This document shows, piece after piece, positions 968 to 57,155 of a stretch of 64,000 nt of DNA (the stretch's first letter is position 1; every line of letters starts with the position of its first letter). Made by a program: the position numbers and the translations under genes. The stretch comes from Mustelus asterias. Taxonomy: Eukaryota. The notes beneath the pieces were generated by a model. The model saw only the letters and a program-made list of their open reading frames with translations. It ran no database searches and was not told the DNA's origin. The DNA lies in contig NC_135802.1 in the NCBI RefSeq assembly GCF_964213995.1, positions 70,990,001-71,054,000 of the forward strand, written 5' to 3'.

Positions 968-1137
968 GCAAATCAAAGCATAATACTGCAGGTGCTGGAA
1001 ATCTGAAATAAAGACCAGAAATACTGGAAAAACTCAGCAGGTCTGGCAGAAATAATTAATTAGATCTAAACGTTAACTCTGTTTCTCTCTTCACAGATGT
1101 TGCCAAACCTGCTGAGTTTTCCAGCATTTTCTGTCTT
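968..1137. mobile_element. Penelope-like family B fold-back insertion (older)
   Basis: Inverted arms CTGGAAAAACTCAGCAGGTCTGGCA / TGCCAAACCTGCTGAGTTTTCCAG; tail TACTGCAGGTGCTGGAAATC on the left only; homologous to 24461-24649. Confidence 0.7.
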
Positions 1138-1796
1138 CCACCAGCAATGGTGGCTTCACCGAGAAAAAACTGGTGCATCAGGTCTGCAGCCACAAGGCAT
1201 TTTAATGGACCTTCTTAATGCTATGTGCACATTGTATTGTTGAGGCAATGTTTTTGACTGGTTGTTTTTTTTTGACAGCAAGCAGTTTCTCAGGACAGAA
1301 TTGAGTAAATTGCAGACATTCTGGAACTGGAAGTGTTGAAAGAATACTGGATCGCAGCAGCATTCCGGATGAATGTTATTCACGAAACATTGAAAAGAAC
1401 AGAAGACCTTAGAGTCTGACCTTTGAGAAGTTGCTCTGCTGAGTGGCAAGCGATTGTAGTTAAATTATAGCAGGATGACAATAATGATTGTTGCAGCCCT
1501 ACTTACACATGCATTAGCACATCAATACCAAAGTCTAGTATGACTCACGCAACACAGTCATGTACTCAACGGGCTTTTATAAAGAGTAGGATTATGTGAA
1601 ACTAATTAAAACGGTAATACTTTGTTATAAATCATAATTCTTCCAGATCCCTGCTTGGAATTATATTTTATTAGGATGCTATGCTTTGCAGCATTGTCCT
1701 GGATCTGAACTGGATTATTTCAAGGAGGAAAAAAAACAGAAGTTGATGTGTAGACACAGAGAACAAGTAGTTTATTTATTCATTTTCAATTAACTG

Positions 1797-2100
1797 TGCG
1801 GCACGGTGGCAGAGTGGCAGCGCCAGGGACCTGGGTTCAATTCTCAGCTTGGGTCGCTGTCTGTGTGGAATTTGCATGTTCTCCCTGTGTCTGCGTGAGT
1901 TTCCTCCAGATGCTCCAGTTTCCTCCCACACTCCAAAGATGTGTGGGTTAGGTGGATTGGCCATGCTAAATTGCCCCTTAGTGTCAGGAGGACTAGATAG
2001 AGTAAATGCCTGGGGTTATGGGGATAGGGCCTGCGTGGAATTGTGGTCAGTGCAGATTCGATGGGCCAAATGGCTTCCTTCTGCACTGTAAGATTCTATG
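1797..2100 (+). mobile_element. HE1-like V-SINE with CR1-derived tail
   Basis: tRNA-like head, B-box, V-domain, 3' GATGGGCCAAATGGCTTCCTTCTGCACTGTAAGATTCTATG. Confidence 0.85.
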
Positions 2101-3360
2101 AACCATTCAGCGGGCAGTTTTAACTCTGCTTGCTCAGCGATAGGGGCAAGAGGTAGGTCACTTTCATTTTTTTGCTTCTTTAAATCCCACAAAGGAAGTC
2201 TAGATCTCAGTTGCACCAGTTATTCTATCTGCCACCACTCCACTCAACTGGGAGACAATCGCAGATCACCCTCCATGGTAATTACCAAAAAGTTGGAGAC
2301 AAATCCTTTGGGCAGGCCATTGTGTCTACACCTAACATTCCTCTCCTGCCCACTGGTCAGTTAACACTTGCTGTTGGTGGGTACTGACCACAACCAAGCA
2401 GCTGAAGCCTGTAAATTCAAATTTCCCACAGTTCCTACTTCTGAAATCAGAAAATTTAGTCCGCCTGATTCCTGCCCTGAGTTTAACATTGAAACTTGTA
2501 TCTCTGAAATCACATTAATAGGTGGGGACTGTCCTGCTGCTGCACTCTAACACTGTAAATGGAAGAAGCAATCAGGTCTGACAATTATTTCTGCTTTCCC
2601 CTATTTTCTTCAGGTATAACTTGCCTCACATCAGTCTCCACCTGCTTAGTACTAAGCACAGCCTTGAATCCTAAATCTTTCCAATATTAGTTTTATGCTA
2701 TAGGGATCTCTCATGCCTGCCTCTGATGTCCTTTTGATGTCTTCAGAAAATGCAGCATGTTAGTGAAAATTGACAAAGAGGGCGGTGAGATAAGCTGAAG
2801 AAACAGGGCTGATAAATACAAGGCCCCTGAAAATCCTGATTACTGTCTACACTGCAGTAAGGATAGGGTTGACATCCTCTTATTAATTGCATGCTTCAGT
2901 GAGTCCCCCAGAGCTTTATCTTGTCTAACTCACAACTGTAAAACCTGGGACACTACTCACACCTAAAATTGAAGCAAATCTCTCACGGGAAGGAAAGTTT
3001 CTCTGCAAGTTTTCAAAGGTGGTAGCAAATTCTTGGAGGCATGACAGGGGAATGGTGTGTGTGAATGTGTGAATCTTGAAGATGGTAGCTGACTCTTGGG
3101 CTGGCAGCTTCCTACTCAGATCCTCTTCTGCAACTTCATCCATGCCCATGCTTTGACCTTCTCCCTGCACTTCCTCTGCTTCACTGTTTAAAATGCCCAG
3201 CACTTAATGATGGGTAACTTGTAACTCAATCTATTAACCATGTCATAATTAGTTTACTTCTGTGTTTCCTAGATAAATATTATCACTGGATATGATGATG
3301 TCTACCTAGCATGACATGATCTCAACTCTAGTATTTTAAGGGACATTCCAAACATGAAAA

Positions 3361-3650
3361 CATAGTTTGAGGATAAGGGGCCTTTTAGAACTGAGGTGAG
3401 GAGAAATTTCTTCAGCCAGAGAGTGGTGAATGTGCGGAATTCACTACCACAGAAAGTGGTTGAGGCCAAAACGTTGTCTGATTTCAAGAGGAAATTAGAT
3501 ATTGCTCTTAGGGCTAAAGGGATCAATGGATATGAGGGGAAGGGAAATCAGGATATTGAATTTGATGATTAGCCATAATCAAAATGAATGCTGGAACAGG
3601 CTCGAAAGGCCAAATGGCCTCCTCCTGCTTCTAGTTACTATACCTCTATG
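3361..3650 (+). mobile_element. CR1 LINE 3' fragment
   Basis: Encodes FRTEVRRNFFSQRVVNVRNSLP; CR1 3' UTR GGCCAAATGGCCTCCTCCTGCT. Confidence 0.85.
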
Positions 3651-4504
3651 GAGTTTGCATGGTGTTCCAGACAGGAGACAAGAAGAAAAATATATATATA
3701 GCACCGTCAGCCTGTCTACTTTATAAAATTATTTGATTTTTCTTTATTTTTCAAAATGGACAAACACTGGGTTGATAAAATAGCTGCAGCTGGTCACATG
3801 CTCGCTTCTGGAAGTTTCTGAGCAGTTTGAAAGTGAATAAAGGCTGACACCTCACACCTCCTGGAATGTAATACTCCTTGCATTGTATAAATATTCCAGC
3901 CAAGCCAGCACAATGGTTTAATAGACAACATGCCTGTGCCAGCCAGATATGGCCAAAGGCAGCTGTTTGTGACTCCAAATCTCCAATGTGGTGTTAATGG
4001 CCCAACCATTACCTGCTCAAAAACACAATGGATTTCAACCAATGGGCATTGTTAGTCAACCAAAACCATCTTATCACATAACTGATACTTGAGTTGGCTG
4101 AATTCTTTAATTAATAAGCTGTTGGTTGTATCTTTAGTCACTGTTTAACCATCATAGAGAAACAGAATTCTGGGCAACAGCCTGTCTCTATCTCCCATTT
4201 ACCATCTCACAGTAGCAGCAGAAAGTGCTCTGTCCAGGTGAACTGCTTGGCCCTCACACTAAATAAGCAATACTAAACCCCAGTTGGAATGCTACAGGAG
4301 AGAAAAGGCAAGAATGGCCAGACACTATCCACAGCCAGCCCCGGACGTGGGACGAACGGGAGCTAAATGAACCTCAGCCGGACCTGGTCTCGACCTTCAG
4401 CAACTCTGGGGTGAGTGAATGTATTACATCACAGAAAAATAAAGACTCCTTGACGCGGTCCGCGGATCGGTACATGTTCACTTTAATCAATGTGGATAAT
4501 CCGA

Positions 4505-4569
4505 AGTAAGAAGTTTAACAACTTCTTACTGTGTTTACCCCAGTCCAACGCCGGCATCTCCACATCATG
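4505..4569. mobile_element. Minimal PLE family A fold-back insertion (~65 bp)
   Basis: AGTAAGAAGTT-TAAC-AACTTCTTACT plus tail; 12-bp duplication GATAATCCGAAG at 4495-4506 and 4569-4580. Confidence 0.85.
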
Positions 4570-4910
4570 ATAATCCGAAGCACATGGGAACCTATTAGAA
4601 CGTTCGAAATAATTCAATCGGAACAGTGTGAACCCCTAAAACAAAAATATAAATCTGTAACTTTTCAAACAAGATATAATATGGAGGACACACTGGCCAC
4701 ATGGTGTCTCTGTACACAGCAGGCCTAGGTAAAACACAAATCCTTAAGTATTCGATCACCGGAAATAATAGGAGAAACCTGGACACAGGATAGGCCGTTA
4801 CAATTAACAAAATGGCTCTTCCTTAAAAATGCAAATGTCTATATTCCCTGAATCACCTGGAGCAATGGGAAGAACCCTGGGAAGAACTGGAAAGAATGGG
4901 AAGAACTGCT

Positions 4911-5002
4911 TCTGACGAAGGAGCAGGGCTCCGAAAGCTAATGGCATTTGCTACCAAATAAACCTGTTGGACTTTAACCTGGTGTTGTTAAAACTCTTAC
5001 TG
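4911..5002 (+). mobile_element. PLE family A single tail-less arm starting at the hammerhead core
   Basis: CTGACGAAGGAGCAGGGCTCCGAAAGCTAATGG...ACTCTTACTG; flanking AAGAACCCTGG at 4870-4880 and 5004-5014. Confidence 0.85.
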
Positions 5003-5124
5003 TAAGAACCCTGGACACAGGGTAACTTACCATCACTGACAAAAGAAACTCTCCTAAGAAGGGCAACAACTAACCCTCTGGATCATTTTAAAATAATATG
5101 ATATCTGTGAAATCATTCATTTAT

Positions 5125-12245: not shown

Positions 12246-13395
12246 ATAGAGTCATAACATCATAGAGGTTTACAGCATGGAAACAGGCCCTTTGGCCCAA
12301 CTTGTCCATGCCGCCCCTTTTTTTAACCCTGAAGCTAGTCCCATTTGCCCACGTTTGGCCCATATCCTTCTACACCCATCTTGCCCATGTAACTGTCCAA
12401 ATGCTTTTTAAAAGATAAAATTGTACCGCCTCGACTACTACCTCTGGCAGCTCATTCCGGACACTCTCCACCCTCTGTGTGAAAAAATTGCCCTTCTGGA
12501 CCCTTTTGTATCTCTCCCCTCTCACCTTAAACCTATGCCCTCCAGTTTCAGACTCCCCTACCTTTGGGAAAAGATATTGACTATCTAGCTGATCTATGCC
12601 CCTCATTATTTTATAGACCTCTATAAGGTCACCGCTAAGCCTCCTACACTCCAGAGAAAAATGTCCCAGTCTATCCAGCCTTTCCTTATAACTCAAACCA
12701 TCAAGTCCCAGTAGTATCCTAGTAAATCTTTTCTGCACTCTTCCTAATGTAATAATATCCTTTCTATAATAGGGTGACCAGAACTGTAGACAGTATTCCA
12801 AATGTGGCCTTACCAATGTCTTGTACAACTTCAACAAGACATCCCAACTCCTGACATCCCAATGTCCTGACCAATGAAACGAAGCATGCCGAATCCCTTC
12901 TTCTCCACTCTGTCCACCTGTGACTCCACTTTCAAGGAGCTATGAACCTGTACCTCCAGATCTCTTTGTTCTATAACTCTTCCCAACACCCTACCATTAA
13001 CTGAGTAAGTCCTGCCCTGATTCGATCTACCAAAATGCATCACCTCGCATTTATCTAAATTAAACTCCATCTGCCATTCGTCAGCGCACTGGCCCAATTG
13101 ATCAAGATCCTGTTGCAATCCTAGATAACCTTGTTCACTGTCCACTATGCCACCAATCTTGGTGTCATCTGCAAACTTATTAACCATGCCTACTAAATTC
13201 TCATCGAAATCATGAATATAAATGACAAATAATAGTGGATGTAGCACCAATCCCTGAGGCACACCGCTGGTCACAAGCCTCCAGTTTGAAAAACAACCCT
13301 CTACAACCACCCTCTGTCTTCTGTCATCAAGCCAATTTTGTATCCATTTGGCTACCTCACCCTGGATCCTGTGAGATTTAACCTTATGCAACAAC
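12246..13395 (-). mobile_element. CR1 LINE, 5'-truncated, frameshifted RT
   Basis: ORFs 12831-13397 (SGVPQG, KFADDTK) and 12370-12837; same subfamily as 36897-38245. Confidence 0.95.
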
Positions 13396-14437
13396 ACTAA
13401 CGTGTCAGGAAACAGGAGACTCTACTCCAATGTGACGCCATAACCCAATGTCACATGATCCAATGTCAGATCTCACGCAAACAATACTAAAACAAAACTC
13501 CAGATTTTAAACATGAATGCAGGCCCTTTTAACTGACCGTGTTGAAGCAGAACAACTGAAAATGGTGCAATTTAAAACGGGGACTTACTGCAATTCCAAA
13601 TCATGTATCCAAACTAAAGTGATTGTAAGGTGGCCTAGCATCTGCTAAATTGAACACTATGCAGCAGCAGTCAGAAGTGGTAACTGTGACTCTATGATAA
13701 TCAGTCTGGAGATTCTCCTCAAATCGATCTTGTGTTCACTGTATGAATAATGAAGGATCAGAAGCAAACACATGAATCACACAGCTGCCATGTCTCTAGT
13801 TCCATTATTTTCAATTTAAGTGGCAACAGCATGAAGAGTGGGTTATTGGAGGCAAGTTCATGATTGCCATCTATTTTAATGAGGGTGGAGCTATTATAAT
13901 TACTTTAAAGCTGTTTTTGGCAAGTCCCAGGAAATTACGTTGTGTAAGTCACTCATCGTACAATTCCCTGGAACAACTGTGCTGGAATATTGCTGCAAGT
14001 TTTCAACAAATTCCAAAACTATGATTCTCTGAAACTATATAGCGTCTCACTGATGCTCTAAAATTCAATGAACTTTTCCAGTTAAAATGTATTTTTTCCT
14101 GGCAGAATGTCATTTTATTGTGGTTATAATAGTGGCTCAATAACCAGCAGTTAGTTTGTTCTCTATGTAATTAATTTTATAAATGTGTGGGATGAAGGCA
14201 GGACCAATGTTTTTTGCCCATCCTTCATTGCTCTTGAGAAGGTGGTGGTGAGCTGCCTTCTTTAAGATAGTTGCATGGGGCGGCTCCCGTGGACCCCCTG
14301 TATTCCACCGAGCCCGGATTGGGAACTCCTGCACTATTTTATCATACCTCCAAATGTTCTTATCATTCTTTTGCTTTTGTAACTGCTAACATTGAAAGCT
14401 AAGTGTCAACAGTGGAAAAAATACTTGAAGGCTAAAT

Positions 14438-16946
14438 ATAAGAACATAAGAACATAAGAAATAGGAGCAGGAGTAGGCCATCTAGCCCCTCGAGCCTGCC
14501 CCGCCATTCAATAAGATCATGGCTGATCTGACGTGGATCAGTACCACTTACCCGCCTGATCCCCATAACCCTTAATTCCCTTACCGATCAGGAATCCATC
14601 CATCCGCGCTTTAAACATATTCAGCGAGGTAGCCTCCACCACCTCAGTGGGCAGAGAATTCCAGAGATTCACCACCCTCTGGGAGAAGAAGTTCCTCCTC
14701 AACTCTGTCTTAAACCGACCCCCCTTTATTTTGAGGCTGTGTCCTCTAGTTTTAACTTCCTTACTAAGTGGAAAGAATCTCTCCGCCTCCACCCTATCCA
14801 GCCCCCGCATTATCTTATAAGTCTCCATAAGATCCCCCCTCATCCTTCTAAACTCCAACGAGTACAAACCCAATCTCCTCAGCCTCTCCTCATAATCCAA
14901 ACCCCTCATCTCCGGTATCAACCTGGTGAACCTTCTCTGCACTCCCTCCAATGCCAATATATCCTTCCTCATATAAGGGGACCAATACTGCACACAGTAT
15001 TCCAGCTGCGGCCTCACCAATGCCCTGTACAGGTGCATCAAGACATCCCTGCTTTTATATTCTATCCCCTTCGCAATATAGGCCAACATCCCATTTGCCT
15101 TCTTGATCACCTGTTGTACCTGCAGACTGGGCTTTTGCGTCTCATGCACAAGGACCCCCAGGTCCCTTTGCACGGTAGCATGTTTTAATTTGTTTCCATT
15201 GAGATAGTAATCCCATTTGTTATTATTTCCTCCAAAGTGTATAACCTCGCATTTCTCAACGTTATACTCCATTTGCCATATCCTCGCCCACTCACTCAGC
15301 CTGTCCAAATCTCTCTGCAGATCTTCTCCGTCCTCCACACGATTCACTTTTCCACTTATCTTTGTGTCGTCTGCAAACTTCGTTACCCTACACTCCGTCC
15401 CCTCCTCCAGATCATCTATATAAATGGTAAATAGTTGCGGCCCGAGTACCGATCCCTGCGGCACGCCACTAGTTACCTTCCTCCAACCGGAAAAACACCC
15501 ATTTATTCCGACTCTTTGCTTCCTGTCGGATAGCCAGTCCCCAATCCACTTTAACACACTACCCCCAACTCCGTGTGCCCTAATCTTCTTCAGTAGCCTT
15601 TTATGGGGCACCTTATCAAACGCCTTTTGGAAATCCAAAAACACCGCATCCACCGGTTCTCCTCCATCAACCGCCCTAGTCACATCTTCATAAAAATCCA
15701 ACATGTTCGTCAAGCACGACTTTCCCCTCATGAATCCATGCTGCGTCTGATTGATCGAACCATTTCTATCCAGATGCCCTGCTATCTCCTCTTTAATAAT
15801 GGATTCCAGCATTTTCCCTACTACAGATGTTAAGCTGACCGGCCTATAGTTACCCGCCTTTTGTCTCCTTCCTTTTTTAAACAGCGGCGTAACATTAGCC
15901 GTTTTCCAATCAACCGGCACTACCCCAGAATGCAACGAGTTTTGATAAATAATCACTAACGCATCCACTATTACCTCTGACATTTCTTTCAATACCCTGG
16001 GATGCATTCCATCCGGACCCGGGGACTTATCCACCTTCAGTCCCATTAGTCTACCCAGCACTGCCTCTCTGGTAACATTAATTGTATTAAGTATTTCTCC
16101 TGCTGCCAACCCTCTATCGTTAATATTTGGCAAACTATTTGTGTCCTCCACCGTGAAGACCGACACAAAAAACTTATTTAAAGACTCAGCCATATCCTCA
16201 TTTCCCACTATTAACTCCCCCCTCTCGTCCTCCAAGGGTCCAACATTCACTCTAGCCACTCTATTCCTTTTTATATATTTATAAAAACTTTTACTATCAT
16301 TTTTTATATTAATTGCTAGCCTAGCTTCATAGTCTATCCTTCCTTTCTTTATCACTTTCTTAGTCTCTCTTTGTTGTTTCTTAAATTTTTCCCAATCACT
16401 TGTTTCTCCACTATTTTTGGCCACTCTGTACGCAGCTGTTTTTATTTTAATACTCTCCTTTATTTCCTTCGTTATCCACGGCTGGTTCTCCCTTTTCTTA
16501 CAATCCTTGTTTTTTGCTGGAATATATTTTTGCTGAGAACTGAAAAGGATCTCCTTAAAAATCCTCCACTGTTCCTCAGCTATCCTACCTGCCAGCCTGC
16601 TCTCCCAGTCTACCTTAGCCAATTCATCCCTCATCCTATCATATTTCCCTCTGTTCAAACAGAGGACACTGGTTTGGGACCAAACTTTCTCCTCTTCCAT
16701 CTGAATCAGAAATTCGACCATATTGTGGTCACTAGACCCAAGAGGGTCCTTCACAATAAGATCCTTAATTCTACCTACCTCGTTACACAATACCAGATCC
16801 AAAATAGCTCGTTCCCTCGTCGGTTCCGTAACATGCTGTTCAAGGAAACTATCCCGACAGCATTCTAAGAACTCTTCCTCCATTCCACCCTTACCGACTT
16901 GAGTCTGCCAGTCAATGTGCATGTTGAAGTCCCCCATGATTATTGC
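14438..16946 (-). mobile_element. Young CR1 LINE, 5'-truncated within the endonuclease
   Basis: (TTCTTATG)n 3' tail; uninterrupted ORF2; CpG retained. Confidence 0.97.
14538..16945 (-). CDS. CR1 ORF2 fragment (C-terminal APE endonuclease plus complete RT), open about 800 codons
   Basis: GDFN, LDLVL, SDHN, NYRPVSLTS, QHGF, LDFQKAFD, GVPQGSVLGP, KFADDTK; the N-terminal residues of the ORF-track call are flanking DNA. Confidence 0.92.
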
Positions 16947-17560
16947 AAATAATAACTGTCTGTGTGGGTTACGACTACCACTAGTCAACCGCTGTCCATC
17001 AGAGGTGACAATAGTTTGTCAGTGCAAGAGCTGTCCAATGTTTGGCATGGTATCACCATGACAACGACCTGTCTCTTTCTCCAGGGAGTCTCAGTCTATA
17101 GCATTGCTGTCATCCCCTATCTGGGTCATCACACTTCCTGCTACATGTCACATGCAAATAATCCTTAGCTTTCCTTTTCTATTTTCCTTTACTTCTTTCT
17201 GTATCTGAGGGCAGCTTCTGCAAAAAAAAACTTGCAATGTGGCTCAGGAATCATTTAAGCTTCGCTATTTACTGATTAGTTCTGCTCTGTCTTTTCTGGT
17301 ACATTTTGATGCATTCTCTTACTTTAACTTGCAACATATCACATCCAATTTCTTTCTTTTTGGTGACTCCTCTAGCCTGTTTCTTTTTCTTTTCTGTCAA
17401 ATATCCTTGTTTTTCCCTCTATCTGTTCTTCGTACACCAAAATATATCAGTTGCTACCTGGCTGACTTGATTTTAGTTTTCCATCTGCTACTCCTTGTTT
17501 CAGGGGATGTGGGCATCAGAGGCTGGGCGAGGATTTGTTGCCCATCCCAAATTGCCCTTC

Positions 17561-20251: not shown

Positions 20252-20273
20252 AGTAGGAGAAGAAGCCCAGGCA

Positions 20274-22403: not shown

Positions 22404-22412
22404 GCTGGTCAA

Positions 22413-22427
22413 CTGTTGTGAATAAAA
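22413..22427 (-). promoter_or_regulatory. Non-tRNA sequence at the primer-binding position, complementary to the element's own LTR
   Basis: Minus strand TTTTATTCACAACAG starts 1 nt after the LTR end; perfect inverted repeat of 22483-22497. Confidence 0.7.
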
Positions 22428-22428
22428 T

Positions 22429-23751: not shown

Positions 23752-24199
23752 CATGATGTGGAGATGCCGGCGTTGGACTGGGGTAAGCACAGTAAGAAGT
23801 CTCACAACACCAGGTTAAAGTCCAACAGGTTTATTTGGTAGCAAATACCAGAAGCTTTCGGAGCAATGCTCCTTCGTCAGATGGAGTGGTCTCTGTTCTC
23901 AAACAGGGCACAGACACAGAAATCAAATTACAGAATACTGATTAGAATGCAAATCTCTACAGCCAGCCAGGTCTTAAATGTACAGACAATGTACAGACAC
24001 ATTGTCTGTACATTTAAGACCTGGCTGGCTGTAGAGATTTGCATTCTAATCAGTATTCTGTAATTTGATTTCTGTGTCTGTGCCCTGTTTGAGAACAGAG
24101 ACCACTCCATCTGACGAAGGAGCATTGCTCCGAAAGCTTATGGTATTTGCTACCAAATAAACCTGTTGGACTTTAACCTGGTGTTGTGAGACTTCTTAC
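23752..24199. mobile_element. PLE family A fold-back insertion: 201-bp inverted arms plus one-sided tail
   Basis: Arms 23792-23992 and 23999-24199 (one mismatch seen); TSD GGTTCAAGAACA at 23742-23753 and 24200-24211. Confidence 0.93.
24107..24143 (+). ncRNA. Minimal type I hammerhead ribozyme motif (mirror copy on the minus strand at about 23848-23884)
   Basis: CCAU-CUGACGA-A-GGAGC-AUU-GCUCC-GAAA-GCU-U-AUGG. Confidence 0.8.
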
Positions 24200-24460
24200 G
24201 GTTCAAGAACAGGCAGAGTTGTAAGTCGAGCAATGTAATATTAAAACTTTCCAAAGGTCAGAAGCTTAGGGCACGTGATGTTGCCCATTAACAAGTCAAC
24301 TACAGGCTAATAAACAGTTTCTATAACGTCTGGTCAAACTCCATTGTTCACCTTTAGGAGATAGATGGTGGCTATTAACACTCCAGCAGATATACCGAGC
24401 TATGATGGCTCTCCCTTTGTTATAGAACCAGGCTGGGGAGACAGATCATCCTTGATTATA

Positions 24461-24649
24461 AAATAAAAGCAAATTACTGCGGATGCTGGAATCTGAAACC
24501 AAAAGAGAAAATGCTAGAAAATCTCAGCAGGTCTGGCAGTATCTGTAAGGAGAGAAAAGAACTGACGTTTCAAGTCCAGATGACCCCTTGTCAAAGCTTT
24601 CAGCAGCCAGATCTGCTGAGATTTTCCAGCATTTTCTCTTTTGGTTTCA
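24461..24649. mobile_element. PLE family B fold-back insertion
   Basis: Inverted arms TGAAACCAAAAGAGAAAATGCT...CTGGC / GCCAG...TTTTGGTTTCA; tail on the left only; TSD TTGATTATA at 24452-24460 and 24653-24661. Confidence 0.82.
24560..24598 (-). ncRNA. Degenerate hammerhead motif of PLE family B
   Basis: Minus strand AGCU-UUGACAA-GGGGUC-AUCUG-GACUU-GAAA-CGU-C-AGUU; core mutated from CUGACGA. Confidence 0.55.
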
Positions 24650-32110: not shown

Positions 32111-32117
32111 AGATATT

Positions 32118-36896: not shown

Positions 36897-38245
36897 CATA
36901 GAGTCATAGAGGTTTACAGCATTGAAACAGGCCCTTCGGCCCAACTTGTCCATGCTGCCCTTTTTATTTTAAACCCCTAAGCTAGTCCTAATTGCCTGCG
37001 TTTGGCCCATGTCCCTCTATACCCATCTTACCCATGTAACTGTCTAAACGCTTTTTAAAAGACAAAATTGTACTCGCCTCTACTACTACCTCTGGCAGCT
37101 TGTTCCAGACATTCACCACCTTCTGTGTGAAAAAATTGCCCCTCTTGACACTTTTGTATCTCTCCCCTCTCACCTTAAACCTATGCCCTCTAGTTTTAGA
37201 CTCCCCTACCTTTGGGAAAAGATATTGACTTTCTAGCTGATCTATGCCCCTCGTTATTTTATAGACCTCTATAAGGTCACCCCTCAGCCTCCTACGCTCC
37301 AGAGAAAAAAGTCCCAGTCTATCAAGCCTCTCCTTATAACTCAAACCATCAAGTCCCGGTAGTATCCTAGTAAATCTCTTCTGCACTCTTTCTAGTTTAA
37401 TAATATCCTTTCTATAATAGGGTGACCAGAACTGTACACAGTATTCCAAGTATGGCCTTACCGATGTCTTATCCAACTTCAACAAGACACCCCAACTCCT
37501 GTATTCAATGTTCTGACCAATGAAACCAAGCATGCTGAATGCCTTCTTCACCACTCTGTCCACCTGTGACTCCACTTTCAAGGAGCTATGAACCTGTACC
37601 CCTAGATCTCTTTGTTCTGTAACTCTCCCCAACGCCCTACCATTAACTGAGTAAGTCCTGCCCTGGTTCAATCTACCAAAATGCATCATCTCACAATTAC
37701 CTAAATTAGACTCCATCTGCCATTCGTCAGCCCACTGGCCCAATTGATTAAGATCCCGTTGCAATCCTAGATAACCTTCTTCACTGTCCACTATGCCACC
37801 AATCTTGGTGTCATCTGCAAACTTATTAACCATGCCTCCCATATTCTCATCCAAATTATTAATATAAATGACAAATAACAGTGGATCCAGCACCGATCCC
37901 TGAGGCACACCGCTGGTCACAGGTCTCCAGTTTGAAAAACAACCCTCGACAACCACCCTCTGGCTTCTGTCATCAAGCCAGTTTTTTATCCATTTAGCTA
38001 CCTCACCCTGGATCCCGTGAGATTTAACCTTATGCAACAACCTACCATGCAGTACCTTGTCAAAGGCCTTGCTAAAGTCCATGTAGACAACATCAACTGC
38101 ACTGCCCTCATCTACCTTCTTGGTTACCCCTTCAAAAAACTCAATCAAATTTGTAAGACATGATTTTCCACTCACAAAACCATGCTGACTGTCCCTAATC
38201 AATCCTTGCGTCTCTAAATGCCTGTAGATTCTGTCTCTCAAAATA
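36897..38245 (-). mobile_element. CR1, 5'-truncated, 417-codon open RT fragment (36988-38241)
   Basis: QHGF, MDFSKAFD, GVPQGSVL, KFADDTK. Confidence 0.95.
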
Positions 38246-38382
38246 CCAGCAGTGCAGCTACTATAAAATACCCCAGTGGGCAGATAGTCACCTGCAACAA
38301 CTGCGCAAAATGCTCATTATCAGGAAACTCTACCTTCAGTAAGCACATTTGATCTCTCAAAACCCCTCGGAATAACCTAAAC

Positions 38383-38689: not shown

Positions 38690-39832
38690 ACCTAAACCTT
38701 CGCAGCTGGAGGAGAATCCAGTTTCCAACTCCTTTCACAAATTTATTTCTGATGCCAGAAAAAGGCTTTTGGAATGCCATTGCAAATAAACAGATACAAG
38801 GCATCATGCGGCATTACCAGCTTGGTGTGTTGGGTCAAATGTTCCTGGAACTCATTCAGCATGTCGCTACAGTATTACCTACAGAAGTCTTCCAATTTTC
38901 TAATTTCATGAAAGCCCTTGTTGCTTTATGACCATTTTTATTTATTTTTTGTTTTTATTTTACAGAGCTCAGATCCAGCTCCATACTTTCATTCCAAGTT
39001 ATTTTTCCTATATGATCTTCATTCTTTGTGACGCAAATGCATCTTGAATTTTGTTAGTTTATATTTTTGTGTTGTTTCTTTCCTTCGAGTTCAATAACAT
39101 ATGACTTACTGAAGCAATAACACTGCCAGAAAATCCAATCCAATAAATACAGGAGATTTAATACACATCTGACAGCCTGAGGTACTACATTCTTCTTTGG
39201 AATCTCAGGAGAGATTTATTTCCGATTATTTAATTTAAAATGCAATAGCAATGCCTTTGTCTTATTGGATTGTATTTAATTTCTTTGAAATATTTAATTA
39301 CATGAAAAATATCCAATGTCCAACCTTTTATCATAGTATTTTCCAAACAGCTGAACAGTTTCTAGACTACTTGCAGGAAACTCATTGTTTTCATATGAAA
39401 TTATAACAATCAAACTGTCTTAAAAATTAAACATTTCATAACCAAAATATGGCATAGCAATATTGTGTGTTGGATTTTGCAGCATGAAACTCATTTAAGA
39501 TACAAATGGGAATATGTTACTGTTCCAGTATGTTTTGTTTTCAAAAAGAGTCTTCATAACTTCATGGAAATGTTAACTCAAGACACGTTTACCACTTACT
39601 GATAAATTCATCATGTTATTAAATTTGCCATGAGGCCTAACCAGCCACTTTTCAATTGACCTCAATGCACTGACCAACGATCTCACCATGGCTACAGTCT
39701 TTCTCAGAAGCACAGCACATGAAAGGTGATGTGCATTCCTGTTACCTCCGGTAGAGTGACAATTGAGTTGGATTGCTGCTCTGCTTGTAGTTACTTGCCT
39801 TGAAACCCAGCCATTCCTATCTCTGAGTCAAG

Positions 39833-39864
39833 ATGTGGAGATGCCGGCGTTGGACAGCCCAACT
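39833..39864 (-). mobile_element. PLE family A tail-only micro-insertion (32 bp)
   Basis: ATGTGGAGATGCCGGCGTTGGAC+AGCCCAACT; TSD TCTGAGTCAAG at 39822-39832 and 39865-39875. Confidence 0.8.
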
Positions 39865-42380: not shown

Positions 42381-43186
42381 GCTGGGCTGAATAATGGCAA
42401 ATGGAGTTTAACCCTGATAAATGTGAGGTCATTCATTTTGGTAGGACTAATTTAAATGTGGATTACAGGGTCAAAGGTAGGGTTCTGAAGACTGTGGAGG
42501 AACAGAGAGATCTTGGGGTCCATATCCACAGATCTCTAAAGGTTGCCACTCAAGTGGATAGAGCTGTGAAGAAGGCCTATAGTGTGTTAGCTTTTATTAA
42601 CAGGGGGTTGGAGTTTAAGAGCCATGGGGTTATGCTGCAACTGTACAGGACCTTGGTGAGACCACATTTGGAATATTGTGTGCAGTTCTGGTCACCTCAC
42701 TATAAGAAGGATGTGGAAGCACTGGAAAGAGTGCAGAGGAGATTTACCAGGATGCTGCCTGGTTTGGAGGGTAGGTCTTATGAGGAAAGGTTGAGGGAGC
42801 TAGGGCTGTTCTCTCTGGAGCGGAGGAGGCTGAGGGGAGACTTAATAGAGGTTTATAAAATGATGAAGGGGATAGATAGAGTGAACGTTCAAAGATTATT
42901 TCCTCGGGTGGATGGAGCTATTACAAGGGGGCATAACTATAGGGTTCATGGTGGGAGATATAGGAAGGATATCAGAGATAGGTTCTTTACGCAGAGAGTG
43001 GTTGGGGTGTGGAATGGACTGCCTGCAGTGATATTGGAGTCAGACACTTCAGGAACATTTAAGCGGTTATTGGATAGGCACATGGAGCACACCAGGATGA
43101 TAGGGAGTGGGATAGCTTGATCTTGGTTTCAGATAAAGCTCGGCACAACATCGTGGGCTGATGTGCTGTACTGTTCTATGTTCTAA
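42381..43186 (+). mobile_element. CR1 3' fragment with open ORF 42401-43120
   Basis: WQMEFNPDKCEVIHFG...LVRPHLEYCVQFWSP. Confidence 0.95.
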
Positions 43187-44330: not shown

Positions 44331-46319
44331 AAAAAGCCAAGATTTGGGGCTCATGCTGGGATCCTGAGAGGCAGGAGCTAAACAAAGCTTAAAGAAATAA
44401 ATTGCATTTAACCTTGTTTGACATCCTAGTAACATGGAGTGCACCCTGTCTTGGAGCTGCACACTTGTTTCTTGTCCTGCTTTCCACTTCCAGGCTGGCT
44501 AGGGGGACAGGTTTTCATTGGGGATTACCTGTGGATATGGTAATTACCCAGGAATGGAAATGGCAGCTCTTCTGAAATGGAACAGATCTGGAACACTTCA
44601 GTGTGTTGTTCCTGTCCATTTCAGAGCAAAGTGGTCAGGAAAATTGGCCTTACAACCTCTTTATTCTGATGATCACCCACTGCTATTGACAGCAGATTCA
44701 TTGGGGTTGGGCATACTTAAAGTGGAATGTTAATATTAATAAGTTGTTCCAAATGAACGAAGCAATCTTGCAGCAGTGCTCCTAATGGATCAGTGAAGCA
44801 CAGAATGCAGAAGTACACTTCCTCTTAACAAATATCTTTCTCAATATTGTACAATGTATTGTCCACACTGGGACTGAAGTAAATGAAAGACATGGATAAG
44901 TCAATTTGGGATTGCTGTTTTTTTCTACATAATAGGAAACAAAAAGGACCAGTATTCATTGCAAAATAATGCTTGAGGCAAATGACAATCACATTATTTA
45001 TGTGTAAATCCCAACCCAGGGGATGAATCTATCCAAAGATTGTTTGTTGTTTCACCACTCTTCATTACTTTCATGCTAATAACCATTGACATGACTTACC
45101 ATTGGCATTCATTGAATGTCAGGAAGTTGTTGTACCTGCGGCGCAGACATTTAGGACTTAAAATTATAAGTGTAAGTGCTTTGTGGTGACATAATTTTTA
45201 ATCACAGCCAATTATTCTCACTGGCCCAGCAAGGAAAAGTGTGAAGTCACATTTCTTTGGGTATTATTTGTAGTTGGAGTTTTATAAAATGTCAAATTTA
45301 TTACTTTTTAATTTACTTTTTTCTGTTTTTATTCTCAGTATTAATTACATCTGCCTCTCTTTCTGTACCTGATTTGATAATGAATTTGCCCACTCTAATT
45401 TACACTTCCTGTTTATTTCTCACCCATTCAATCTGATTGGTTAAGGGGATACAGAATTGGTTTCCCTGTTGAGTGAAGTCCCAGCTGCCCAGTTTCCCAT
45501 TAGCAACCACACTTCCATCGGCCATGATACAAAAATGCTTAAAAGTTAGGCTTGCGCAAACAAGTCTGATTAGCGACAAAACCATTATATGCCCTGCTAC
45601 AAGAAAAGTGATTTATTTGTATCTTCACAACAGAAGATTAATACCAATGAAAAGTTAATAGTTAAATAAAACTTAATAAGTCCATTTTTACAGCTATTTC
45701 AAATTGAACTGTGAAAATTTGCAGGGCTGTTTCTCCATTCTAGATTTGGAGTTGGATGAGTATGGATTAGGTAAGTAATGGTTGAAAAGCAAACCTAAGT
45801 TACTTTTCATTACCCATACATCAAACACGACCTGATTATGCTTATGTGTAGAATGTACAAGAACCATGTTATAGGCCTTGAGAATGACTCAAATTAATGT
45901 AAACCTGTAAGGAGTAAGTTCTCACTGATACGTCGTCTGCTTTGTAACTGTAAATGTAGGAACATAGGGCAGAATTCATACATCCTTCCCAGCAGCGGGT
46001 TTGGAGGTGAGGGGCCTTTAATCAGTCGGAGGCGTGTCAGATGGCACTGTCTATAAATGGAGAGCTGCTGGCCTCTGATTGGCCTGCAGCTCATGGGGTT
46101 GGCAGGGGGGTTCAAGGAGGTGGGATGTTTGTCCTTGGGATCCTTAATTGCTGGGAAGGCCTGATAATGGCGACTTCAGTGGCTGATAAGCATTTAATGT
46201 GGCTGGTCTTCTCCAATGGAAGTCATGATGTGGAGATGCCGGCGTTGGACTGGGGTAAGCACAGTAAGAAGTCTCACAACACCAGGTTAAAGTCCAACAG
46301 GTTTATTTGGTAGCAAATA

Positions 46320-46356
46320 CCATAAGCTTTCGGAGCAGAGCTCCTTCGTCAGATGG
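46320..46356 (-). ncRNA. Minimal hammerhead ribozyme motif
   Basis: Mirror of 46956-46992. Confidence 0.8.
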
Positions 46357-46548
46357 AGTGGATATCTGTTCTCAAACAGTACACAGACACAGAAATCAAA
46401 TTACAGAATACTGATTAGAATGCAAATCTCTACAGCCAGCCAGGTCTTAAATGTACAGACAATGTGGGTGGAGGGAGCATTCAACACAGGTTAAAGAGAT
46501 GTGTATTGTCTCCAGACAGAACAGCTTGTGGAATTCTGCAAGTCCAGG

Positions 46549-46708
46549 TCACGGGCATTCAGCCTTGGATCTTCAGGTAAGCGTTCTCCAAGGCGGCCTT
46601 TATGACACACGACAGCGCAGAGTCGCTGAGCAGAAACTGATAGCCAAGTTCCGCACACATGAGGACGGCCTAAACCGGGATGTTGGATTTATGTCACATT
46701 ATCAGTAA
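46549..46708 (+). pseudogene. C-terminus of PLE GIY-YIG endonuclease
   Basis: HGHSALDLQVSVLQGG...RRVAEQKLIAKFRTHEDGLNRDVGF*: the H-S..DL / R...E..LI..F.T...GLN pattern of PLE GIY-YIG ends. Confidence 0.85.
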
Positions 46709-46758
46709 CCCCCACAGCTTGTTGGATTTATGTCACATTATCAGTAACCCCCACAGCT
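46681..46758. repeat. 39-bp perfect tandem duplication spanning the PLE stop codon
   Basis: TGTTGGATTTATGTCACATTATCAGTAACCCCCACAGCT x2. Confidence 0.95.
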
Positions 46759-46955
46759 TGCCTCCTGGACTTGCAGAATTCCACAAGCTGTTCTGTCTGG
46801 AGACAATACACATCTCTTTAACTTGTGTTGAATGCTCCCTCCACCCACATTGTCTGTACATTTAAGACCTGGCTGGCTGTAGAGATTTGCATTCTAATCA
46901 GTATTCTGTAATTTGATTTCTGTGTCTGTGTACTGTTTGAGAACAGATATCCACT

Positions 46956-46992
46956 CCATCTGACGAAGGAGCTCTGCTCCGAAAGCTTATGG
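46956..46992 (+). ncRNA. Minimal hammerhead ribozyme motif
   Basis: CCAU-CUGACGA-A-GGAGC-UCU-GCUCC-GAAA-GCU-U-AUGG. Confidence 0.8.
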
Positions 46993-47382
46993 TATTTGCT
47001 ACCAAATAAACCTGTTGGACTTTAACCTGGTGTTGTGAGACTTCTTACTCTACTTCTCCAATGGAGGCAGCATGAGACTCTCACAGTTCTCCAGTTGATA
47101 GCCAATGCCCCCCCTGCCCCCCTCCAACCTTGATTAAATTCCGCCCATAGTAACAATAATAAATAGGCCATTCAGCCAGAGTCTGTTCACCATTCTACAA
47201 GATCAAAGCTGATTAATTCCACAATTTCATTTACTGACTTCTGACCAATGTTTCTTGATATCTGCCTTTTCCAGACAAATTTCAGATCTGCATTACCCTT
47301 TGTACAGATAAGGCCTTCCTCCTTTCACCCCTGAATTGTATGATTACAATTTTATGATTCAACCCCTTTGTTCTAGACTACT

Positions 47383-47465
47383 CAGTAAGAAGTCTCACAA
47401 CACCAGGTTAAAGTCCAACAGGTTTATTTGGTAGCAAAAGCCACAAGCTTTCGGAGCGCTGCTCC
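47383..47465 (-). mobile_element. PLE family A tail-less single arm, truncated at hammerhead stem II
   Basis: CAGTAAGAAGTCTCACAACACC...AAGCTTTCGGAGCGCTGCTCC. Confidence 0.85.
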
Positions 47466-52884: not shown

Positions 52885-54037
52885 CTGCAGAAGATAAAGG
52901 TGCACGGTGTTACGGGTAATGTTTAGCATGGATAGAGGATTGGTTAACTTAGAGAAAGCAAAGAGTGGGGAAAAATGGGTGTTTTTCTGGTTAGCGATCA
53001 GTGACTAGTGGTGTGCCTCAGGGATCAGTGTTGGGACCACAGTTGTTTACAATTTACTTAGATGATTTGGAGTTGGGGACAAAGTGTAGTGTGTCAAAGT
53101 TCGCAGATGACACTAAGATGAGTGGTAGAGCAAAGTGTGCAGATAATACTGAAAATCTGCAGAGGGCTATAGATAGATTAACTGAGTGGGCAAGGGTCTG
53201 GCAAATGGAGTACAATGTTGGTAAATGTGACGTCATCCATTTTGGTAGGAATAACAGCAAAATGGACTATTATTTAAACAGTTAAAAAATTGTAGCATGC
53301 TTCTGTGCAGAGGGACCTGGGTGTCCTTGTGCGTGAATCATAAAAAGTTGGTTTGCAAGTGCAACAGGTAATTAAGAAGGCAAATGGAATTTTGTCCTTC
53401 ATTGCTAGAGAGATGGAGTTTAAAAAACAGAGAGGTTATGTTGCAGCTGTATAAGGTGCTAGTGAGGCCACATATGGAGTACTATGTACAGTTTTGGTCT
53501 CCTTATTTGAGAAAGGATATACTGGCACTGGAGGGGGTGCAGAGGAGATTCACTGGGTTGATTCTGGAGTTGAGGCGGTTGACTTATGAGGAGAGACTTA
53601 GTAGACTGGGGCTATACTCATTGGAATTCAGGAGAATGAGGGGAGATCTTATAGAAACATATAAGATTATGAAGGGAATAGATAAGATAGAAGCAGGGAC
53701 GTTATTTCCACTGGCAGGTGAAACTAGAACTCGGGGGCATGGCCTCAAAATAAGGGGGAGCAGATTTAGGACTGAGTTGACGAGGAACTTCTTCACCCAA
53801 AGGGTTGTGAATCTGTGGAATTCTCTGCCCAGTGCAGCAGTTGAGGCAACCTTGTTGAATGTTTTTAAGTCAAAGATAGATAGATTTTTGAACAGTAAAG
53901 GAATCAAGGATTATGGTGAGCGGGCGGGTAAGTGGAGCTGAGTCCACAAGAATATCCGCCATGATTTTATTGAATGGCGGAGTAGGCTCGAAGGGCCAGA
54001 TGGCCTACCCCTGCTTGTAGTTCTCATGTTCTTATGA
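52885..54037 (+). mobile_element. CR1 3' portion, with stops and frameshifts
   Basis: GVPQGSVLGPQLF, KFADDTK; TTCTTATG tail. Confidence 0.93.
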
Positions 54038-54149: not shown

Positions 54150-54282
54150 TACCCCCTCTTTATCAATTGTTTGCCCATCCAGTATCTCAGCTACTTCCTG
54201 TTTCATTATGATTTTGACAGCATCTTCTTCCTTGATAAAGCCGAATACAAAGTATTCATTCAGTCCCTCATTGATGCCCAAT

Positions 54283-54508
54283 GGCATCAGTTTAGCTCAG
54301 TTGGCTGGAAAGCTGGTTAGTGATGCAGAATGATGCCAACAGTATGGGTTCAATTCCCGTACAGGCTGAGGGGGTTATTCATGAAGCCTTCTCAACCTTG
54401 CTCTTTGCCTGAGGCTTGGTGATCCTCAGGTTAAATCACCACCAGTCAGCTCTCACCCTCAAAGCGGAGAGCATTCTATGACCATCTGGAACTATGGTGA
54501 TTTTACCA
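54283..54508 (+). mobile_element. tRNA-derived SINE, different family
   Basis: A-box TAGCTCAGTTGG, B-box GGTTCAATTCC; body unlike the V-SINEs. Confidence 0.7.
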
Positions 54509-55328
54509 ATGCCCTCTGCCTTCTTGTGTATGTCGTCTTTTTGGTCCCGAAACAGCTTCACCTCTCCCCATATTATGCTTTTACTGCATGTTTTTATTAT
54601 ATAAGAAGAAATAACTTCTCTTTTCATACTCCCTCTTTGCCTCTCCAATTTCCGTTTTCATTTCCCCTCTGAACTTTCTATATTCAGCCTATTTCTCATC
54701 TGTATTACCAATCAGGAATCTGTCATAAACTCCCTTCATATTACTCCTTATCCCTTTTCTACTTGGAACTCTGGCTTTGCTGAACCACACATCTGTTGTA
54801 ACAACAGAAGAAAATAATTTTTCTGCAGGCAAGCTGGAATTCATATAATGGATCGGTCATGGCCAAAGGGAGCTGAGTGCACACATTCACATATTGTCAT
54901 CTAAGGCAAGGCGTACTCGTAACTTAAAGTACAGACATTATTCAAGGTGGACATTGATCAGAGAAACTGTTAAAATATTGGGTTTAAAAGGTCACTGCGT
55001 CCACAAAAATGGCTGCTGAACATCAGTGACACTGCTGTTAGGATTCGAGAACCCGATCAGGGAACTGATTCACTGTCTCACAAAGAGCAGCGTATTCTAG
55101 AACAATTGAAGCAGAATCCGTGTCAGTTTGAATTCAGTTAGTTATTCAAATAAAACTGTTAAATTGCAGTTCTGACCGTTGTCACCAAAGTGATCTGGAC
55201 ACGGTAAGAAAGTATCGCACAACTTGCCGACTATGCCAAACAAACTGTTAAACTGATGTTCCCTGTAGTCACCGAAGCCAATCAGACACAGCAAGAAGGA
55301 GGCGTAAAGTCTGCAGTGAAACTGAAGT

Positions 55329-55834
55329 CATGATGTGGAGATGCCGGCGTTGGACTGGGGTAAGCACAGTAAGAAGTTTAACAACACCAGGTTAAAGTCC
55401 AACAGGTTTATTTGGTAGCAAAAGCCACAAGCTTTCGGAGCCTTAAGTCCCTTCTTCAGGTGAGTGGGAATTCTGTTCACAAACAGGGCATATAAAGACA
55501 CAAACTCAATTTACAGAATAATGGTTGGAATGCGAATACTTACAGCTAATCAAGTCTTTAAGATACAAACAATGTGAGTGGAGAGAGCATTAAGACAGGT
55601 TAAAAAGATGTGTATTGTCTCCAGACAGGACAGCCACTGGCTGTCTTAATGCTCTCTCCACTCACATTGTTTGTATCTTAAAGACTTGATTAGCTGTTGT
55701 GTCTTTATATGCCCTGTTTGTGAACAGAATTCCCACTCACCTGAAGAAGGGGCTTGGAGCTCCGAAAGCTTGTGTGGCTTTTGCTCCCAAATAAACCTGT
55801 TGGACTTTAACCTGGTGTTGTTAAACTTCTTATT
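55329..55834. mobile_element. PLE family A (second subfamily) fold-back insertion
   Basis: Tail plus left arm 55329-55636, turn GACAGCCA-C-TGGCTGTC, right arm with two deletions; TSD GTGAAACTGAAG at 55316-55327 and 55835-55846. Confidence 0.92.
55738..55774 (+). ncRNA. Minimal hammerhead ribozyme motif (covariant stem I)
   Basis: CAC-CUGAAGA-A-GGGGC-UUGGA-GCUCC-GAAA-GCU-U-GUG. Confidence 0.8.
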
Positions 55835-57155
55835 GTGAAACTGAAGAGCAGACAACTTTCTCCCTGAACATCAGCCCACACAAGGACTGAATTCATCGAT
55901 TAGCGAAACGACCAAAATCCAACCTCCCCCCTTCAGAAGAATTCCAACTAAAACTGGCTGTTGAAATTCCTTAACTGCTATCTGACTGAAGAAAGCCTCT
56001 GATGAGACTTGCAGCCTTTCAGTTTACGTCAGACAATTGATTATTGAACATTTCCATTTCTCTTCCAAGTTGCAACAGTTTAACTGTTCCCGTAACTTTT
56101 CCCGAGTGTATTAGTGTGAGTGAACGCGTGAGAGAATGACATGGTATTCATTTTTGGGTTATTTAGTAACTTTAAAAAATGATCATCTTGTTTACAATGA
56201 ATTCCTGAAAGTCTGCTGCTACACTATTACCTGACCACAAGCTCAGTAATAGAACAAACACAAGGACAATTCCTATTCTTTGAGTTCACTGATCACAGGC
56301 AGTTTGAAAAGAGGACAAGCGTTGTCAGCTGTTCCCTTTCAACCTGAGCGTGACAATATGTAAATTTTTGTTCAGACATGCACTCAGGGGTTAATTGCGA
56401 CTCTTGCATACTGTACTCTACTCCACAAAGTTGGAATTAACTCCGTTATGACACTGCAATCTACTCCTGACAATTTGTACTAACTATTGAATTATCTAGT
56501 GACTTGAAAGAAACAATATAAACAACAAATAAAACTAGTATTTAGTGCTAAAACATGAATGGGTTACCTGGTGTGAACTGTAAGATTATTAGGTTACTAA
56601 CTAGAAAATTAATTGTTTAAAATCAAACTTTATTGTAAGAAATTAACAGCTAACCTGGTAGTTTATTAACAGAACTTTATTAGTTACTCATCTTTGTAGA
56701 ATAGTAACATGGGAAAGCTTAGAAATAGGGCACAGTACAGAGAAGAGGCCACAGTAGAGGAATTTTGGGAATTTATGTCAAGTTTTGCTGCTTACTACAG
56801 CAAAAAGCTGGGACTTTGAACTGTGTGAGAAACTGCTAGAATGTAAATCTCTATCTCTCTCTCTATGAGATAAGAAACCAGGAGACATAAAAACATTTAG
56901 ATACAGTATTGCATACAAATGACATTACTTACATAAATAAGGTTAGCAACAGGCACATAATATATTCCTAATTGGTGAAGGAAAGTGTCCTCGCACATGG
57001 GGCTGGAAGGTGATTGGAGTAAGGGAGGCGTTAATTGGATAATAGCTAGGATAAAAGATGCCCTCACTATGTTTATGTGTGGCAGAGAGAAAGACCATCC
57101 AGAAACAAATCACAATATAAGTGAGAGAAAGAGTAGGAGGTTTGAAGATTAAAAC

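Follow-up and report, generated by a model that had tools for sequence, protein, structure and literature searches.

Two-arm insertions of two Penelope-like families in a shark genome and their probable origin by double priming

The window analysed here is a 64,000-bp stretch of the Mustelus asterias genome (G000:C2:70,990,001-71,054,000, in a genome of 3.68 Gb) and contains six two-arm insertions of two Penelope-like element (PLE) families, A and B. Inspection of the window sequence shows in each of them two 3' regions of the pseudo-long terminal repeat (pLTR) that point outward and are joined at their 5' ends, and one arm per insertion exceeds the other at its 3' end by a tail of 36-39 nt. 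The observation of six two-arm insertions is confirmed, and the architecture is real and ordinary. The ordinary insertions of both families probably arise by coupled double priming on one RNA, and double priming of some kind is accepted with still more confidence. The mechanism put forward in an earlier sequence-only reading of the window is partly supported and largely anticipated by in vitro work on another PLE; what the genome adds are quantitative rules, which probably narrow the mechanism to the coupled, one-RNA form.

Structure of the insertions and the one-tail rule

The arms, target-site duplications (TSDs) and ribozyme of the six insertions are the following.

972..1049, minus strand: tailed arm of family B (old subfamily), 80% to the B reference, stopping at the tail end
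1068..1132, plus strand: tail-less arm of family B, with a degenerate TSD at 957-967 / 1136-1147
4505..4522, minus strand: tail-less micro-arm of family A, 18 nt, overlapping its partner by 3 nt
4520..4569, plus strand: tailed arm of family A, partner of the 4505 micro-arm
4495-4506 / 4569-4580: TSD of the 4505 insertion, GATAATCCGAAG, 12 bp
23752..23992, minus strand: tailed arm of family A, target CTG-N16-CAG
23998..24202, plus strand: tail-less arm of family A, its 5' end at most 1 nt from that of the tailed arm
23742-23753 / 24200-24211: TSD of the 23752 insertion, GGTTCAAGAACA, 12 bp
24463..24598, minus strand: tailed arm of family B, beginning exactly at the AGCT putative transcription start
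24606..24649, plus strand: tail-less arm of family B, partner of the 24463 arm
24452-24460 / 24653-24661: TSD of the 24461 insertion, TTGATTATA, 9 bp
46221..46548, minus strand: tailed arm of family A, extending 3 nt beyond the ATG, target CTG-N17-CAG
46548..47049, plus strand: tail-less arm of family A, the longer of the pair, with GIY-YIG C-terminal codons and a 39-bp tandem duplication
46208-46220 / 47053-47065: TSD of the 46224 insertion, CTTCTCCAATGGA, 13 bp
46954..46994, plus strand: minimal type I hammerhead ribozyme, predicted to cut after GAAAGCTT, with compensatory stem I variants between subfamilies
55329..55636, minus strand: tailed arm of family A, target CTG-N16-CAG
55641..55834, plus strand: tail-less arm of family A, in which a deletion near 55697 removes about 39 nt and the hammerhead is unlike that of its partner arm
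55316-55327 / 55835-55846: TSD of the 55329 insertion, GTGAAACTGAAG, 12 bp

The TSDs are exact and 9-13 bp long at five of the six insertions. The exception is the insertion at 968, an 80-86% diverged copy at which the TSD finder gave no TSD and only the degenerate repeat (957-967 against 1136-1147) is left. The GIY-YIG codons of the 46548..47049 arm give a profile match with E 3.5e-12 among 48 frames. The sequence-only reading had placed six such insertions here, with one tailed arm each, five clean TSDs and a degenerate one at 968, and all of this was reproduced.

The wider sample comprises the window and 202 loci elsewhere in the genome (the L-numbers below): 30 were found with the A tail, 70 with the A core and 50 with the B core, 40 are unselected 10-kb stretches, and 12 are long copies or extensions, duplicates being dropped by their flanks. 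Genome-wide counts were made by sequence patterns. The 3' ends are bimodal in both families, and all TSD-bounded two-arm insertions combine a tailed with a tail-less arm (A, 87/87; B, 24/24). When flanks of different insertions are paired, a TSD appears by chance in 2 of 300 cases for each family. Raw alignment ends and other TSD rules give 89/90 (one intermediate), 87/87, 23/23 and 25/25, and exclusion of the tail-ascertained loci leaves 68/69 or 68/68. A first pass that did not require a TSD yielded 79 tail/no-tail, 6 tail/fuzzy, 3 no-tail/no-tail and 2 no-tail/fuzzy pairs in family A, and 22 tail/no-tail, 6 tail/fuzzy, 2 tail/tail and 1 no-tail/no-tail in family B. By eye, L133 and L189 have damaged tails with TSDs, and L070 contains an inner inverted copy of a tail-target junction.

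The same coupling is found genome-wide. Among loci of about 235-275 bp, 22 are tail/tail, compared with 4,461 matches of a tail plus any opposite arm, or about 0.5%; the two patterns have different second anchors and are hit slightly differently by decay. Independent choice of ends would predict tail/tail in about one third of tail-bearing pairs, that is about one for every two tail/no-tail pairs.

The two-arm product is supported as the majority form of family A in unselected sequence: of the family A ends in 464 kb, 32 belong to 16 two-arm insertions bounded by a TSD and 16 are unpaired, and several of the latter face a stub or a diverged partner. The claim that the palindrome is the usual product thus stands for family A; it is not shown for family B, because 3 pairs compare with 26 unpaired ends, mostly old and 73-92% diverged. 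Over all loci, the leftover ends fall into four groups: those that have tail stubs (5 in A, 2 in B), those called single that have a TSD (21 and 13), those that lack one (59 and 81) and those at edges (4 and 1). The earlier list of window copies holds for the six pairs and had left out four single-arm copies of family A:

74..198, minus strand: single tailed arm
4911..5003, plus strand: single tail-less arm with an 11-bp repeat
39829..39855, minus strand: single tail stub with an 11-bp TSD
47383..47465, minus strand: single tail-less arm, for which the TSD search found none

Ends, centres and templates of the two arms

Both ends of the insertions behave as primed ends. The tail ends of family A lie between -7 and +6 around the G of the ATG, with 46/78 at -3 to 0, and the tail-less ends lie 0-12 nt beyond CTTA, with 34/67 at 1-3 nt. 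Primer and template overlap on average by 1.64 nt at the tail end (n=67; null 0.38, maximum in 2,000 shuffles 0.73) and by 1.96 nt at the tail-less end (n=52; null 0.61, maximum 1.15). Single tail-less arms with TSDs also occur. Priming by both target strands, at the tail end and at an internal site, is a well-supported part of the sequence-only reading, and its core has already been obtained in vitro for an anole PLE (PMC11167929). The tail-less arm of family A is confined in its end, as that reading held, although to a window of 5-8 nt with 1-3 nt of microhomology and not to a point.

The target of family A is symmetric. CTG is present on the left in 53/87 insertions, CAG on the right in 53/87, and both in 35/87, against a background of 0.136 per side; the spacing is 16 in 24 and 17 in 8, together 32 of 37 measured pairs (p 2e-37). 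Three of the four family A insertions in the window have the CTG-N16/17-CAG target. The TSD and a cDNA polarity that leaves both of its copies require 3' overhangs. A dimer predicted for residues 1-335 of the A protein scores 0.47, against 0.07 for the best of three controls; the runs share at least 35% of contacts with a pLDDT (predicted local distance difference test) of at least 61 and place helices 42-80 antiparallel. The model passes the dimer mark, which in calibration was reached by 21/30 solved microbial homodimers and 0/23 monomers, and in eukaryotes by 17/29 homodimers (animals 7/16; 1/7 of those lacking an older solved relative) and 0/30 monomers. The model thus supports dimer binding of the A protein and echoes the dimer predicted for the anole protein.

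Either arm may be the longer. Among 69 family A pairs it is the tailed arm that extends further 5' in 21 and the tail-less one in 27, with ties within 5 nt in 21; in 23/71 the arms of a pair stop within 5 nt of each other. The extremes include a tail-less arm of 2,953 nt opposite a tailed arm of 243 nt, and five cases in family A of tail stubs of 8-16 nt opposite long tail-less arms. In family B, 312 loci have both arms at the start site; among 50 listed, 20 are by eye exact loop-less AGCT palindromes and 7 more depart from this form by substitutions only. Such loop-less centres fit the annealing of two cDNA ends and not a snap-back within one strand. Family A has loops of 0-2 nt in 7/71 centres, and its 71 junctions comprise 25 overlaps, 10 blunt joints, 25 fillers of 1-10 nt and 11 longer ones. 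The fillers often copy neighbouring sequence, as does the 5-6-nt filler at the centre of the 23752 insertion (23993-23997). The label "fold-back" in the sequence-only reading is disfavoured by these centres and by the arm lengths, and since two primed cDNAs made on one RNA account better for the data it is probably a misnomer.

The two arms appear to share a template in most pairs. Their reach is correlated (Spearman 0.76), and of 23 pairs extending beyond -200, 9 stop at most 60 nt apart, where permutation gives a mean of 1.4 and none of 20,000 permutations reached 9. Some pairs co-terminate far inside the open reading frame (ORF), at 1,932/1,941, 1,281/1,318 and 1,022/1,016. The median divergence in family A is 2.0% within pairs and 10.2% between insertions (56 pairs). 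The subfamily comparison in family B, with 9 pairs only, gives 0.099 within and 0.086 between.

Some arm ends coincide with probable RNA 5' ends. In family B, 26/88 arms begin at one base, AGCT, which lies 30 nt below TATAAATA in 3/5 long copies and is probably a transcription start. The corresponding peak in family A is broader. A cap signature, an extra G before the B start, was not seen in 20 non-palindromic cases, in which the preceding base is C in 12 and G in 4; the long copies mostly have T at this position. The start sits on a polypyrimidine-AG, and a reading as a splice acceptor was rejected, as the upstream sequences have no common first exon.

At the predicted hammerhead cut, 6/137 sampled A arms begin exactly there and none at -3 to -1. 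In one A subfamily, 1,567 arms genome-wide begin at the predicted cut, the counts at -3 and +3 being 200 and at most 845. The +3 control pools subfamilies, and roughly half of 100 listed among these 845 resemble an intact variant. Both arms end near the cut at 4,954 loci, and about 25 of 50 listed have, by eye, an arm at 0 or -1, some of which microhomology alone could explain.

Several structures were seen at or around the centres. Fillers of reiterated units from adjacent sequence occur at L183:7902-8231 (an 18-mer in three copies), L036, L110 and 23993-23997 of the window, as from slippage synthesis or polymerase-theta-like joining. Other centres have captured either a tail-target junction in inverted form or the tail together with the first codons of the ORF (L070:1298-1566, L173:6157-6442 and G000:C1:37862948), which shows template switches during joining. 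Family A insertions with their own TSDs lie inside older A or B two-arm centres at L107:1540-3685, L104:2789-3158, L129:6254-6606 and L026:505-1597. Pairs of opposite reverse transcriptase (RT) coding matches 1-5 kb apart, such as G000:C6:101001423 with 101006645 and C3:73330447 with 73332938, are multi-kilobase versions of the same palindrome.

Double priming and its alternatives

The proposed reaction has five steps. A protein dimer would bind the RNA at the junction of pLTR and ORF. Judging from the target and the TSD, its two GIY-YIG domains would nick both strands of the symmetric site, about 11-13 nt apart at CTG-N16/17-CAG in family A, and leave 3' overhangs. The next step, priming, is visible in the genomic pattern, and its chemistry has been demonstrated in vitro for another PLE: one overhang primes at the tail end (the ATG of the ORF in family A) and its counterpart at a site 36-39 nt upstream, with 1-3 nt annealed in each case. 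Tail/tail products are proposed to be excluded since two active sites cannot occupy the same site. Both cDNAs would then head to the same RNA 5' end, set by the transcription start, a hammerhead cut or a break, while the trailing enzyme displaces the leading cDNA. The free cDNA ends would finally be joined by microhomology or short templated fill into a head-to-head palindrome, and abortion of one cDNA would give a stub or a single-arm insertion.

A stricter form is more tentative. In it the reaction is obligately asymmetric: a dimer that spaces its RT active sites about 36-39 nt along a single RNA is primed by both target strands and copies that RNA twice, and the hammerhead sets some of the 5' ends. 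If this form is true, the tail is the spacing between subunits, and hammerhead self-cleavage in vivo fixes the 5' end of some templates. It would also represent a third integration chemistry beside the single priming of long interspersed nuclear elements (LINEs) and the integrases of long terminal repeat (LTR) elements, readable from more than 100,000 copies.

A number of points weigh against coupled double priming on one RNA. The evidence consists throughout of old genomic products, among which no intermediate is seen. Two B loci that lack a TSD resemble tail/tail (L083) and no-tail/no-tail (L067) insertions and are possible exceptions, and the 59 A and 81 B ends without a TSD are unclassifiable. 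By eye, about 4 of 56 pairs (L099, L175, L024 and 55329 in the window) mix subfamily variants between their arms, so that one RNA is not universal and two templates are sometimes used. Two enzymes that stall together would make cDNAs of equal length and give a peak of arm reach at +39, and no such peak is seen (2/71). Family B has the CTG/CAG motif in only 2/24 insertions and no peak at the hammerhead cut (1/88 arms). The putative transcription start is deduced from DNA, and the test of the ribozyme cut spans one subfamily with a +3 control that pools several. The anole enzyme in vitro shows no strand difference in start site and does not need hammerhead cleavage (PMC11167929). Finally, fold-back with central deletion would also leave correlated lengths, a shared subfamily and central microhomology.

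The best-surviving alternative, though an unlikely one, is double priming on two templates, either two RNAs or two pLTR copies of one multimeric transcript, with the dimer geometry enforcing the tail/no-tail rule. It is akin to the twin priming of L1 elements. The few pairs with arms of different subfamilies fit it, full-length copies do have two pLTRs, strand displacement is avoided, and shared ends at the start site or hammerhead cut need no common molecule. Independent templates would not give co-termination deep in the ORF (9/23 within 60 nt against 1.4 expected). Moreover, both arms often reach into the ORF, which places the origin of both in the 3' pLTR.

Fold-back copying is less likely again, and two primed cDNAs on one RNA are favoured over it. 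In this scheme the tail-primed cDNA snaps back and is copied to a hairpin. Its second strand either ends at the tail boundary or is cleaved there by the endonuclease, and is joined to the other target strand; central deletions later make the arms unequal. It is related to the self-priming of PMC3846280 and the "EN-mediated resolution" of PMC8557442, where EN denotes the endonuclease. It accounts for the correlated arm lengths, the same subfamily in most pairs and the palindromic or microhomologous centres; the D. virilis endonuclease needs tail DNA to cleave (cited in PMC11167929), and microhomology at the tail-less end could come from end-joining. However, the tail-less arm is often far the longer and tail stubs of 8-16 nt exist, single tail-less insertions bear TSDs, and some pairs are discordant in subfamily. 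Loop-less centres (27 of 50 listed in B; loops of 0-2 nt in 7/71 in A) cannot be primed by snap-back, and RT starts at both tail boundaries in vitro (PMC11167929).

Assembly chimeras, chance adjacency of two insertions or recombination after insertion are very improbable, as one TSD brackets each pair (null 2/300), the target motif is symmetric about the pair and thousands of loci have the pattern. No contig bridged the centre of a window palindrome, the reads available for this check being short-read contigs that enter the elements by 20-23 nt, where the bridging standard is 31 letters. A depth-11 contig from another organism, with differences on both flanks of the 55329 insertion, breaks off at 55316 and continues from 55835, which probably marks an empty site with a single TSD copy; at the 46224 insertion the contig of the other organism ends at 46210. 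Contigs of 4/4 runs, from three studies, contain head-to-head joints of family A whose short sides measure about 21-27 letters, and one run (X1) may derive from the sample of the assembly itself.

Two further candidates were rejected. In L1 twin priming the second target strand primes internally on the RNA, and the resulting inversion has microhomology at its junction; the inverted segment comes from another region, upstream of the direct one and not overlapping it, the internal site is random, and there is poly(A). The arms of families A and B, in contrast, have no poly(A) and are both copies of one region, begun at two fixed windows that lie 36-39 nt from each other, which does not fit L1-type twin priming. 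Miniature inverted-repeat transposable elements (MITEs) and other DNA transposons with terminal inverted repeats do not fit ends that are always unequal by the tail or lengths that are not fixed and range from 62 to 3,820 bp.

Family identity, related systems and other features

Family A: Exact matches genome-wide number 24,320 for the A tail and 176,877 for the A core. The ORFs have 887-917 codons in 4/4 long copies, and the closest named homologues of the protein are shark proteins. The L199 copy encodes an 892-aa protein with an RT domain (Pfam RVT_1, E 6.7e-10). The Pfam GIY-YIG model gave no match on this query itself, but PF01541 is present in several homologues, and the CCHH residues of the endonuclease (C797, C801, H821 and H837) are invariant or nearly so in 47 homologues. 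The linker joining RT to EN, C754-X4-C759-xx-C762, is conserved and fits the CX2-5CxxC that marks Neptune (PMC8557442). With RT, endonuclease and a pLTR with hammerhead and tail all present, the sequence identifies family A as an EN+ PLE; by the definitions of PMC8557442 it would be Neptune or Nematis, and the linker suggests the Neptune type. The tail continues into the ORF and ends at its ATG in 3/4 long copies (L199-L201), and 4/95 tail ends extend beyond it by 13-18 nt of ORF sequence, which makes the tail end a position within the RNA.

Family B: Exact matches to one B motif number 9,473. Only the C-terminal motif of the endonuclease was recovered (E 0.003-0.03 among 48 frames). The pLTR has a hammerhead-like U3-A8 core, an AGCT stem I (by eye from the alignment) and a 36-nt tail, and the TSDs are 9-16 bp in 24 insertions.

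Hammerheads and RNA structure: Both pLTRs contain a minimal hammerhead. In family A, stem I covaries (CCAT:ATGG 24, TCAC:GTGG 15 and TCAC:GTGT 16 of 88 variants), and position 17 is non-G in 78/88 variants with the GCT core. No match came from an Rfam gathering search of the window or from Pfam applied to three partial protein sequences. The data do not support a conserved RNA structure surrounding the two start sites: a hairpin is predicted in A with 0/14 pairs covarying, B has 1/9, and single folds give z of -0.7 to -1.5.

Related systems: Earlier publications describe inverted arms with a one-sided tail and, in vitro, priming by both strands at two sites of the RNA (Craig 2021; Arkhipova 2013; Frangieh 2024). 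Inverted pLTRs of EN+ PLEs are described for D. virilis Penelope (PMC2377424), Adineta vaga Pen2/Pen2a/Pen3a (PMC3846280) and Naiad/Chlamys/Neptune (PMC8557442). These resemble families A and B in the inverted, 5'-truncated copy at the 5' end, the head-to-head arrangement, the often one-sided tail, the TSD (8-10 bp) and the pLTR promoter. In their available text these accounts are qualitative ("optionally", "often") and concern few copies, whereas a near-absolute rule on thousands of loci is found here; the explanations offered were self-priming on an antisense template or endonuclease resolution (PMC3846280, PMC8557442). PMC8557442 lists as unresolved how the inverted repeats and the tail on one side come about.

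The closest system is the Poseidon element PAc of Anolis carolinensis, with both target strands nicked and extended in vitro (Frangieh et al. 2024, PMC11167929). PAc shares two internal RT start sites that flank a 30-40-nt tail, a hammerhead in the pLTR, and a predicted dimer formed by an N-terminal helix. It differs in clade (Poseidon, against the Neptune type of family A), in start sites (111-118 nt into the ORF, against the ATG) and in target (AT-rich ATT, against CTG-N16/17-CAG). As far as the available text of the paper goes, it reports for PAc no strand difference in start site, no homology between template and target and no RNA ends at the hammerhead cut, and it does not analyse the inverted product or the tail/no-tail coupling; as the sole in vitro study, it leaves the steps that follow unvalidated, and it found no sign of hammerhead cleavage in vivo (PMC11167929). 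Minimal type I hammerheads of metazoan PLEs are known (Cervera and De la Pena 2014, PMC4209133), with a short palindromic helix III, a U3-A8 core as in family B, and opposite-strand motif pairs 100-700 bp apart. RNA cleavage and circularisation were proposed there, whereas the cleaved 5' ends here appear as cDNA end points in family A. In the literature search, neither a strict coupling of tail with no-tail nor common end points of the arms, the CTG-N16/17-CAG target or cDNA ends at a ribozyme cut turned up, part of which Fig. S2 of Frangieh et al. may anticipate; the bioRxiv text 10.64898/2026.07.22.740005 is not relevant to these points.

With this abundance of A core matches, a qualitative description can give way to rules: a tail/no-tail coupling of nearly 99.5%, arm ends in common, a symmetric target, and cDNAs that end where the ribozyme cuts. 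Each of them directly predicts what the existing in vitro system should show. The same rules account for thousands of short palindromes in shark genomes that could be mistaken for MITEs or assembly errors.

Other features: The tandem duplication (46680-46760) and the deletion (55697) in tail-less arms, both of about 39 nt, are near the tail length. The A and B tails have a short common look-alike (CC, purine, GCATC; 46230-46245 and 24475-24490 in the window), which may be chance. The antisense strand of the A pLTR (55452-55462 and other A arms) contains a sequence, CAGGTGAGT, that matches the splice donor consensus. By eye, ORFs of a gypsy-like LTR retrotransposon, with gag-, protease-, RT- and integrase-like parts, lie at 18485-22454 on the minus strand. 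CR1-like RT frames of LINEs are numerous, one of them with 826 codons, and lie at 12370-13421, 14538-17018, 32876-34009, 36988-38313, 42395-43120 and 53372-53941.

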